Positions 35,327 through 36,379 of a DNA stretch of 36,379 nucleotides are shown piece after piece. Source of the DNA: a virus (taxonomy: Duplodnaviria; Heunggongvirae; Uroviricota; Caudoviricetes); the IMG/VR virus record IMGVR_UViG_2531839666_000016, one strand, 5' to 3'. The notes beneath the pieces are model-generated. The model searched no databases and had not been told where the DNA came from. It saw only the letters and a program-made list of their open reading frames with translations. The translations under genes and the position numbers were made by a program. Every line of letters starts with the position of its first letter. Positions within the stretch are counted from its first letter, which is position 1.

Positions 35327-36379
35327 ATGAATACAAATGTAGGGCAGATCACATTAATTGATCTAATTTCAATGCTTGAGAGAAAAGAACTAATAATTAA
35401 CAAGGATTATCAGCGCGGAAATGGAATATGGCCACCATTTGCAAAGAGTTATTTCATAGACACTATTCTAGAAAATTATCCTTTCCCCAAAATATATTTA
35501 TATCAAGCATTTGACAGGACAAACGAAAGGCCAATTAAAGAAATTGTTGATGGCCAGCAACGAGTAACAACTCTCGTTGATTTTTATAAAAACAAATTTG
35601 CACTTACTTCGGCATCGAAGAAGTATTCTGGCATGTATTTTAATGATTTGCCCGATGATGCAAAAAGATGTTTTATTAGTTATCAAGTTGAAACATCCAC
35701 AGTTTATTCAGCAAGCAGGGCTGAATTACTCGAAATGTTTAGACGAATGAATGCTTATACATCTCCACTAACATCAGCAGAAAAACGGCATGCTACTTTT
35801 CAAGGTGCATTTAAGTGGTATATCGTTGAAAAAGCAGATACCCACGCTGAGCTTTTAGAGATTTATAATATATTGTCACCCAAAATATTAGCCAGAATGG
35901 GTGATGCAGAATTTATCTCAGATATGGCAATACTCATTGATAGAGGGCTTTGTTCAAAGTCGGCACCTGCAACCGAAGCTATTTATAAAAAATACGATGA
36001 TGATTTTCCTTTAGAGAATATCTATAACGAGAGAATTGATTATTTCTTCAATTTATTGGCGGAAGATTTTTCCGAATTACGTAATTCATTTATGATGAAA
36101 TCGTATGTTGTTCACTCATTATTTTGTGCTATTACCGCATTAAAATTTGGTTTCCCCGGAAGTGATGAACTTGAAAATGAACTCGGTTTCACGGCTAACC
36201 CAAACTTTGATGTAAATCCTTCCCGTGTAATTCCGATTCTCTTAGAGATGGCTGATGCCCATGAAATTCAGGACGAAGATGGCCCTTATGCGGCCTATGT
36301 AACAAGTTGTTTATCATCAACAACCAAGCTACCACAACGAACCACGCGCACAAAAGAACTGATTAAAGCATTCTTATGA
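35327..36379 (+). CDS. DUF262 (ParB/Srx-like nuclease-NTPase fold) protein, stand-alone, about 350 aa
   Basis: N-terminal KDYQRGNGIWPP…FIDTILENYPFPKIYL…VDGQQRVTTL matches the DUF262 DGQQR signature; AGGAGA RBS; AT-rich gene immediately beyond int. Confidence 0.7.
   Translation: MNTNVGQITLIDLISMLERKELIINKDYQRGNGIWPPFAKSYFIDTILENYPFPKIYLYQAFDRTNERPIKEIVDGQQRVTTLVDFYKNKFALTSASKKYSGMYFNDLPDDAKRCFISYQVETSTVYSASRAELLEMFRRMNAYTSPLTSAEKRHATFQGAFKWYIVEKADTHAELLEIYNILSPKILARMGDAEFISDMAILIDRGLCSKSAPATEAIYKKYDDDFPLENIYNERIDYFFNLLAEDFSELRNSFMMKSYVVHSLFCAITALKFGFPGSDELENELGFTANPNFDVNPSRVIPILLEMADAHEIQDEDGPYAAYVTSCLSSTTKLPQRTTRTKELIKAFL

Follow-up and report, generated by a model that had tools for sequence, protein, structure and literature searches.

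A DUF262 gene at the edge of an e14/SfV-type prophage is half of a two-gene cassette with a likely HEPN partner

Introduction

Is a DUF262 gene that appears to stand alone at the end of a prophage sequence a solitary gene, and what might it do for the element that carries it? The question is raised by IMG/VR record IMGVR_UViG_2531839666_000016, a Caudoviricetes sequence of 36,379 nucleotides (this whole stretch is referred to as the window), which closes on a gene for a 350-residue ParB-like DUF262 protein (gene A, 35327..36379, plus strand) directly beyond a phage integrase gene. A previous sequence-only reading had described gene A as a stand-alone DUF262 gene with the domain of GmrSD-type and several other anti-phage proteins, lying beyond the attachment-site junction. 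Here we find that gene A is followed, just outside the window, by a second gene (gene B) that likely encodes a HEPN protein with predicted RNase activity, and that the pair lies inside an e14/SfV-type prophage, in a slot of variable cargo between the integrase gene and icd. We consider it probable that this two-gene cargo acts against phage as a sensor-effector pair, in the class of PD-T4-2.

Gene A encodes a conserved DUF262 protein with an all-helical C-terminal half

The gene A open reading frame begins with an ATG located 99 nt past the integrase stop (35227), and its TGA stop codon occupies the final three bases of the window. A Shine-Dalgarno sequence, AGGAG, can be read 7 nt 5' of the ATG (35315..35319, plus strand), in agreement with the ribosome-binding site claimed by the sequence-only reading. 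Its description of low-GC DNA next to the integrase also holds, with a GC content of 0.357 for gene A compared with 0.517 for window positions 1-35227 and 0.451 for the integrase gene. A search for homologues returned 927 sequences at E<=1e-5, the nearest with 88% identity and many of 347-350 residues aligning end to end. Given this number of homologues and a conservation that spans the full length of the protein, gene A is a genuine conserved gene. The spacer between the integrase gene and gene A contains a promoter-like TTGAAC-16 nt-TAAAAT element (35268..35295, plus strand; positions 8469-8496 of locus L001, taken from ON470584.1, at an offset of +26799). This is a consensus match only, as the promoter scan found 7 sites in the region versus 9.4 expected, with no enrichment over shuffled sequences. 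The terminator scan likewise gave no enrichment over shuffles, the sole strong terminator being that of icd on the opposite strand.

The DUF262 assignment is borne out by Pfam, with GmrSD_N/DUF262 matching residues 15-158 (E 6.7e-20). This ParB/Srx-fold domain (35369..35800, plus strand) is a putative nucleoside triphosphate (NTP)-binding and hydrolysing sensor module. It contains a QR motif (Q29 and R30; 35411..35416), invariant in both 52 close and 67 distant relatives, the DGQQR motif that forms the DUF262 nucleotide-pocket signature (residues 75-79; 35549..35563), invariant in the close and distant alignments alike, and an FxxxN motif with the sequence FRRMN (F138-N142; 35738..35752), of which F138, R140 and N142 are invariant in the 67 diverse relatives; all three lie on the plus strand. 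Both QR and FxxxN are named conserved DUF262 motifs (PMC12137116), and in GmrSD, BrxU and SspE the DUF262 motifs have been linked with the binding and hydrolysis of nucleotides (PMC10952713, PMC12137116).

The remainder of the protein (residues 159-350; 35801..36376, plus strand) had been called uncharacterised, and indeed a Pfam search of the last 190 residues (161-350) at E<=10 yielded zero matches. The AlphaFold2 (AF2) model of gene A has an overall pLDDT of 88.8, with values of mostly 84-98 from approximately residue 160 onwards, and consists of helices only past residue 128. An HNH or DUF1524 nuclease in the C-terminal half, put forward earlier as a possible effector, was found neither by Pfam nor in the model, which is devoid of beta strands past residue 128. 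The C-terminal half is not a nuclease, and the likely effector is instead the separate protein encoded downstream. Four residues of this half (R190, G207, Y220 and R338) are invariant among the 67 gene A relatives.

A comparison with the PADLOC defence models gave NsnA of the Menshen system as the top match (E 8.5e-32, 108.8 bits, residues 7-255), followed by PD-T4-2_A (E 9.5e-14, 49.2 bits), the latter covering the DUF262 domain only (residues 12-184). Both models match all 67 gene A relatives, with a best PD-T4-2_A E-value of 4.7e-29. NsnA consists of a ParB-DUF262 domain and a C-terminal DNA-binding 'ParBDB' domain (PMC12065111). The NsnA match to gene A runs approximately 100 residues past the Pfam domain, partial evidence that suggests an NsnA-like layout. 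Together with the empty Pfam search, the helical model and the invariant residues, it points to the C-terminal half being probably a ParB-associated, ParBDB-like DNA-binding domain. Fold matching placed gene A among BrxU, SspE, DndI and CTP-binding ParB proteins, with BrxU and SspE the best neighbours. A sequence search of PDB chains with the DUF262 family profile gave nothing useful, with BrxU only at E 0.81.

Gene B is a likely HEPN protein encoded beyond the window edge

The window stops at the gene A stop codon, and all DNA past position 36379 is described here from relatives, namely ON470584.1 and nine complete E. coli genomes in which the segment from the integrase gene through the DUF262 and partner genes to icd is 99.8-100% identical. 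In all of these records (9 of 5,426 complete E. coli genomes and the one phage record) gene B starts 8 nt past the gene A stop. It encodes 216 residues and corresponds to positions 9589-10239 of locus L001 (ON470584.1), equivalent to window positions 36388-37038 and thus just outside the window. The description of gene A as stand-alone can therefore not be upheld: it looks solitary because the window edge happens to fall at its stop codon, and the proposed inspection of the downstream sequence for partner genes did uncover one. In NZ_CP145634.1 (S1-JOR-02-A) the matching segment measures 3304 nt, not 3303, and no gene is annotated past the DUF262 gene; gene B is probably frameshifted in this one strain.

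When searched on its own, gene B has no match in either Pfam or PADLOC, and its HEPN identity is reached exclusively by way of an alignment of the family, a structure model and more distant relatives. All Pfam matches at E<=1e-3 among gene B relatives are to HEPN families, with RiboL-PSP found in 9 (best E 1.9e-6) and Swt1 in 3 (best E 9.2e-4). The active-site motif RNxxxH is present as R152-N-A-C-A-H157, with R152, N153 and H157 invariant in 57 gene B relatives. Across the more diverse set of 71 DUF262-linked partners, mean column identity falls to 21%; R152 and H157 are the only invariant columns, with N153 and W113 nearly so. Gene B has the HEPN alpha-helical bundle fold, and its confident structure model finds HEPN toxins as best matches. 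A sequence search of PDB chains with the gene B family profile gave nothing useful (best E 0.44). From the alignment and the model, gene B is likely a HEPN protein with predicted RNase activity. The family it belongs to is large: an exhaustive profile search yielded 804 family representatives (E<=1e-3; clusters at 50% identity) that range from Proteobacteria to Chloroflexi and archaea, and the best 150 of these 804 matches are at most 243 residues long, mostly approximately 210-220.

The DUF262 and HEPN genes are linked across prokaryotes

One genome per species was scanned for gene A relatives, and 80 loci were kept (26-70% identity, mostly 27-52%), 77 of which include downstream sequence. 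In 71 of these 77 loci, the DUF262 stop is directly met or overlapped by a following gene of the same orientation, whose product has 185-246 residues and carries R[N/H/Q]xxxH at approximately residue 130-170. The linked loci are distributed over Alpha-, Beta- and Gammaproteobacteria, Chloroflexi, Bacteroidota, Actinobacteria, Acidobacteria, Planctomycetes, Verrucomicrobia and archaea. Even the 29 partners missed by a hidden Markov model of the close family are full-length homologues (hhalign probability 93.6%, E 2e-7 over 194 columns, with the motifs aligned). The pairwise identity matrices of the A and B proteins from 67 loci are correlated with a Mantel r of 0.86, a value matched by 0 of 2000 permutations, and the HEPN partner diverges approximately twice as fast (mean identity of 18% versus 32% for the DUF262 protein). 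Judged by these comparisons, the pairing of A and B is ancient.

Defence cargo is typically sporadic, mobile and integrase-adjacent. Homologous pairs occur as a cassette in the V. cholerae chromosome-2 superintegron, directly beside a P2-like prophage integrase in P. syringae, and within an island with umuDC-like genes in Klebsiella quasipneumoniae. In P. syringae CP197201.1 (locus L095, 9028-9708), the open reading frame of the HEPN partner adjoins the DUF262 gene and is absent from the source annotation; such partner genes are easily overlooked by gene callers and domain databases.

The linkage bears directly on the alternative in which gene A acts by itself as a GmrSD-like, modification-dependent (type IV) restriction protein, cutting modified phage DNA, with the downstream gene incidental. 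Gene A does share the N-terminal DUF262 module, with its QR, DGQQR and FxxxN motifs, with GmrSD, BrxU and SspE, the latter two are its top structural matches, and some ParB-fold proteins are labelled nucleases. Against this, a DUF1524/His-Me nuclease domain was found neither by Pfam over residues 161-350 nor in the strandless part of the model, and gene A has 350 residues as opposed to approximately 560-770 for BrxU and SspE, making it some 200-400 residues shorter. The co-diverging HEPN partner beside the DUF262 gene in 71/77 loci is likewise difficult to reconcile with an incidental neighbour. In the A-B pair, the effector would act in trans and the predicted target is RNA rather than DNA. 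Since it lacks a DUF1524 domain, the pair is not GmrSD-type, and a restriction role for gene A is highly improbable. Of the original proposal, defence persists as the best reading, while the GmrSD-like mechanism that it implied does not.

The pair occupies a cargo slot between intE and icd

The gene preceding gene A encodes an intE-type tyrosine integrase (34097..35227, plus strand) with the arm-binding and catalytic domains of lambda Int (Pfam Arm-DNA-bind_1, E 7.3e-37; Phage_integrase, E 4.4e-18), and is 88.6% identical at the nucleotide level to intE of the K-12 prophage e14. It is preceded in turn by an xisE-type excisionase gene (33856..34116, plus strand; Pfam Exc, E 1.8e-12), annotated as xisE in relatives. 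Approximately 500 of the 5,426 complete E. coli genomes contain an intE-type integrase gene; the A-B cassette is present in 9, always in this same position. The cassette measures approximately 1.85 kb, is of low GC content and comprises two genes only, and its host element is an e14/SfV-type prophage.

In NZ_CP195459.1 the order of genes is icdC remnant, mcrA, pinE, the invertible tail-fibre genes and so on to xisE, intE, DUF262, HEPN and icd. The two prophage junctions of this genome share 220 nt, a stretch that begins abruptly within icd with 77 identical bases and continues through the icd stop codon and the terminator hairpin. In the relatives, the attL crossover block lies inside icd, approximately 870-950 nt beyond the point that corresponds to the window end, and mapping in the same relatives located no attachment junction between the integrase gene and gene A. 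This arrangement is the one known from e14, where icd receives a replacement 3' end from the phage. As the icdC remnant and the phage-supplied icd 3' end flank the two sides, the A-B pair is inside the prophage, between the integrase gene and the icd-side attachment arm; this is mapped in relatives, as the window stops before the attachment site.

This mapping corrects the placement of gene A beyond the att-proximal junction and separates the two options offered for it previously, retaining the prophage-borne moron and discarding the idea that gene A opens a defence island at the site of integration. A chromosomal island outside the prophage would accord with gene A being the final gene before the prophage end and with a GC content unlike that of the phage. 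Complete genomes nevertheless place gene A between the two copies of the attachment site (icdC to icd), with the phage-derived icd 3' end and the arm repeats described below lying beyond it. Furthermore, gene A is found only together with intE, in 9/5,426 genomes, and is absent where the prophage is lacking or another e14-type prophage is present. It is thus not a core chromosomal gene, one of two outcomes named beforehand as refuting a defence gene; the other, a C-terminal half with a housekeeping function, did not occur either, with no housekeeping match obtained. We consider the chromosomal island to have next to no probability.

The position taken by the pair holds different genes in related prophages. 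K-12 e14 carries lit, ymfE and ymfD there, and five other intE prophages carry five cargos: an AAA ATPase with a hypothetical protein, an AAA ATPase with an HNH endonuclease, three hypothetical proteins with an integrase fragment, a 775-residue TPR protein, and a set including a KwaB-like protein. The integrase gene forms the left border of the slot. When the icd-proximal ends of six e14-family prophages are aligned, the cargo side is unrelated and gives way to sharp near-identity from three direct TTGATAA repeats onwards, followed by the terminator. These repeats (positions 10257-10295 of locus L001, approximately 680-720 nt past the window end in relatives) are invariant in the six prophages and form the right border. 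They belong to an 11-nt array that is the sole tandem repeat around the operon. Phage lambda has three P' arm sites beside int, and by analogy the TTGATAA repeats are probably arm-type (P'-like) sites of the integrase. The region between intE and icd is a variable cargo hotspot.

The same comparison addresses the suggestion that the pair serves the phage itself, through ParB-like DNA handling or regulation in lysogeny or replication. The fold of gene A does resemble the CTP-dependent DNA clamps ParB, Noc and KorB, and its adjacency to int and xis could suggest control of recombination. Sister prophages with the same int/xis and attachment sites, however, lack the pair and hold unrelated cargo instead, the pair is mobile, turning up in integron cassettes, in other prophages and in islands across distant phyla, and the obligatory partner is a predicted RNase. 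A role in the phage's own cycle is therefore very unlikely.

A further alternative, which sees the pair mainly as a toxin-antitoxin or addiction module, in which a HEPN toxin is restrained by an antitoxin-like DUF262 protein and the prophage is stabilised with no sensing of phage, is unlikely, albeit less so than the others. An MNT nucleotidyltransferase serves as the cognate antitoxin of HEPN toxins, and gene B has no such gene beside it. The NTP-pocket signature and the 190-residue helical domain of gene A are kept over very long evolutionary distances, beyond the requirements of a simple antitoxin. Repeats resembling an RNA antitoxin, and Rfam families, are absent from the operon and the DNA 5' of it, the Rfam search in and around it giving sub-threshold matches only, near the icd terminator. 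Finally, sister prophages hold defence cargo in the same slot. Toxin-antitoxin behaviour and defence by abortive infection can coexist.

Relation to known systems and proposed mechanism

The closest known counterpart of the A-B pair is PD-T4-2 from E. coli ECOR65, a DUF262 protein with a RiboL-PSP-like HEPN protein that confers protection from T4 as a cloned system as well as in the strain it comes from (Vassallo et al. 2022; PMC9519451). The two have the same gene order, the gene for a DUF262 protein (a 363-position profile in the case of PD-T4-2_A) coming first and that for a small HEPN protein immediately after it. By HHpred, PD-T4-2B belongs to HEPN_RiboL-PSP, which is also the family with the largest number of matches among gene B relatives, and both pairs are from the E. 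coli accessory genome. The differences, established via the PADLOC models and the published description, are that the PD-T4-2_B model misses gene B, which represents another sequence family; that gene B is approximately 50 residues longer (216 versus approximately 165) with an extra EPTWGD/W113 insert; and that gene A scores higher on Menshen NsnA than on PD-T4-2_A (108.8 versus 49.2 bits). In view of the failed PD-T4-2_B match and the longer partner, we file the A-B pair as a divergent family of the PD-T4-2 class rather than as PD-T4-2 itself, an assignment drawn from these models and that description.

With Menshen (NsnABC), the pair has in common the ParB-DUF262 and helical 'ParBDB' layout indicated by the top NsnA match, as well as the proposed logic, in which a DUF262 protein senses DNA and is coupled to an effector RNase. 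It contains neither the NsnB ABC ATPase (AAA_15 and DUF3696) nor the NsnC inPIN-effector, as downstream of gene A there is only the HEPN gene, followed by the attachment arm and icd. Given that NsnB and NsnC are absent, the pair is not Menshen. ParB-HEPN operons were predicted by Anantharaman et al. 2013, who listed a RiboL-PSP-HEPN 'operon with ParB' and MAE_28990 as an 'operon with a ParB nuclease' (PMC3710099). This is the same predicted gene-neighbourhood class as A-B; the association was listed there without definition of the A-B family, its extent or its carriage by prophages and integrons. Lit of K-12 e14 shares with the pair the prophage family and the slot between intE and the icd-proximal attachment arm. 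It is a classic prophage-encoded T4 exclusion factor that blocks translation by cleaving EF-Tu in response to the T4 Gol peptide. Lit is a zinc protease with no relationship to the DUF262 and HEPN proteins, and its trigger is different. Further candidates were set aside: HEPN-MNT toxin-antitoxin systems, as the neighbour of gene B is a DUF262 protein and no NTase domain is present; Dazbog (DzbAB), of which no model is among the PADLOC matches at E<=1 for gene A or gene B; and GrwAB, TgvAB and the integron 'biobank' systems, which came up when V. cholerae integron and defence papers were examined for experiments on the pair and which are different systems.

We propose that the ParB-like, DNA-binding gene A protein would sense a feature of infecting phage DNA, a phage-induced DNA state or a replication intermediate, with NTP binding and hydrolysis acting as the switch. 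Such an NTP switch has been shown for BrxU and SspE and proposed for NsnA. Gene A would then license a gene B HEPN dimer, by release or activation, to cut tRNA or mRNA, and the resulting stop in translation would shield the lysogen population from superinfection. DARNA-type HEPN defence RNases offer a parallel, being activated by nucleic-acid signals and cutting tRNA (bioRxiv 10.64898/2026.02.22.705581).

Several points weigh against this interpretation. The defence role is argued from two lines of evidence, the homology of the architecture and the location of the pair. Some HEPN domains are catalytically inactive binders. Gene B itself is not in the window, and its presence in the source of the window is deduced from relatives that are 99.8-100% identical over the integrase and DUF262 genes. 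The PD-T4-2_B model, in addition to missing gene B, matches just 1 of the 71 relatives, and weakly (E 0.0067). The direction of regulation could also be either way, with gene A activating or restraining gene B.

A bolder proposal, which we put forward tentatively as possible but rather doubtful, is that the 350-residue DUF262 protein and the approximately 210-residue HEPN protein form a distinct pan-prokaryotic immune module missed by current defence-finding models. A ParB-like, NTP-dependent DNA clamp or sensor would here directly gate a HEPN RNase, amounting to a DNA-sensing, RNA-cutting form of abortive infection separate from Menshen and GmrSD.

Relatives and other features of the window

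The last 2,580 nt of the window are 100% identical to ON470584.1, 'Escherichia phage vB_EcoM-689R6'. Overall, the window represents a distinct prophage, approximately 97-98% related to this record by blastn, with the identity complete only over the last 2.58 kb; its top whole-prophage match is at 98.1%. The structural genes are approximately 97% identical to those of the Shigella serotype-converting phages SfI, SfII, SfIV and SfV. ON470584.1 is an over-extended prophage call that includes the host genes icd, rluE, nudJ, mnmA and hflD. At its left end, pin and mcrA are opposite in orientation to those of NZ_CP195459.1 and lie beside a truncated tail-fibre gene, probably reflecting an assembly join or an inversion at the Pin-invertible segment. 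The window itself begins within the tail-fibre and tail-fibre-assembly region (1-2420), and positions 1-269 are inverted versus the related record, consistent with a Pin-invertible host-range segment.

A second low-GC cargo (approximately 0.40) is located on the minus strand at 19879-20860, between the lysis and HNH/terminase genes. Its two open reading frames encode 128 residues (20474-20860; PADLOC 2TM-TIR, E 5.8e-57) and 192 residues (19879-20457; PADLOC 1TM-TIR, E 8.9e-79), and match both membrane proteins of 2TM-1TM-TIR, a defence system of three genes. Neither flank contains a TIR gene, and the cargo is either a truncated 2TM-1TM-TIR system or a two-gene variant. Just 5' of xis and int, positions 32327-33815 contain YfdQ (DUF2303, E 1.7e-91) and a YfdR-like HD-domain 5'-deoxynucleotidase homologue, a block that is kept in sister prophages.

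Implications

ParB-HEPN operons had already been predicted, and what this locus adds is a DUF262-HEPN family that is large and tightly linked, plus a sharply bounded hotspot for cargo in e14-type prophages. The combination of DUF262 and HEPN has had one validated example so far, PD-T4-2; in the searchable literature since 2023 it is mentioned by only 6 papers, none of which gives a mechanism. The present locus reveals a second, much larger and more widespread family of PD-T4-2-like architecture. For annotation, a 'stand-alone DUF262' gene at the edge of a contig or window should prompt a look for a HEPN gene downstream, and the intE-icd slot is a place to mine for further defence cargo. The family travels as a strictly linked, co-diverging pair, and in E. 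coli occupies the slot of the classic exclusion gene lit. The cassette thereby offers a 1.85-kb native E. coli system in which to study the control of a predicted RNase by a ParB-like NTPase and, should the family indeed be a distinct immune module, its copy in the e14 slot would provide a genetically tractable way into studying it.

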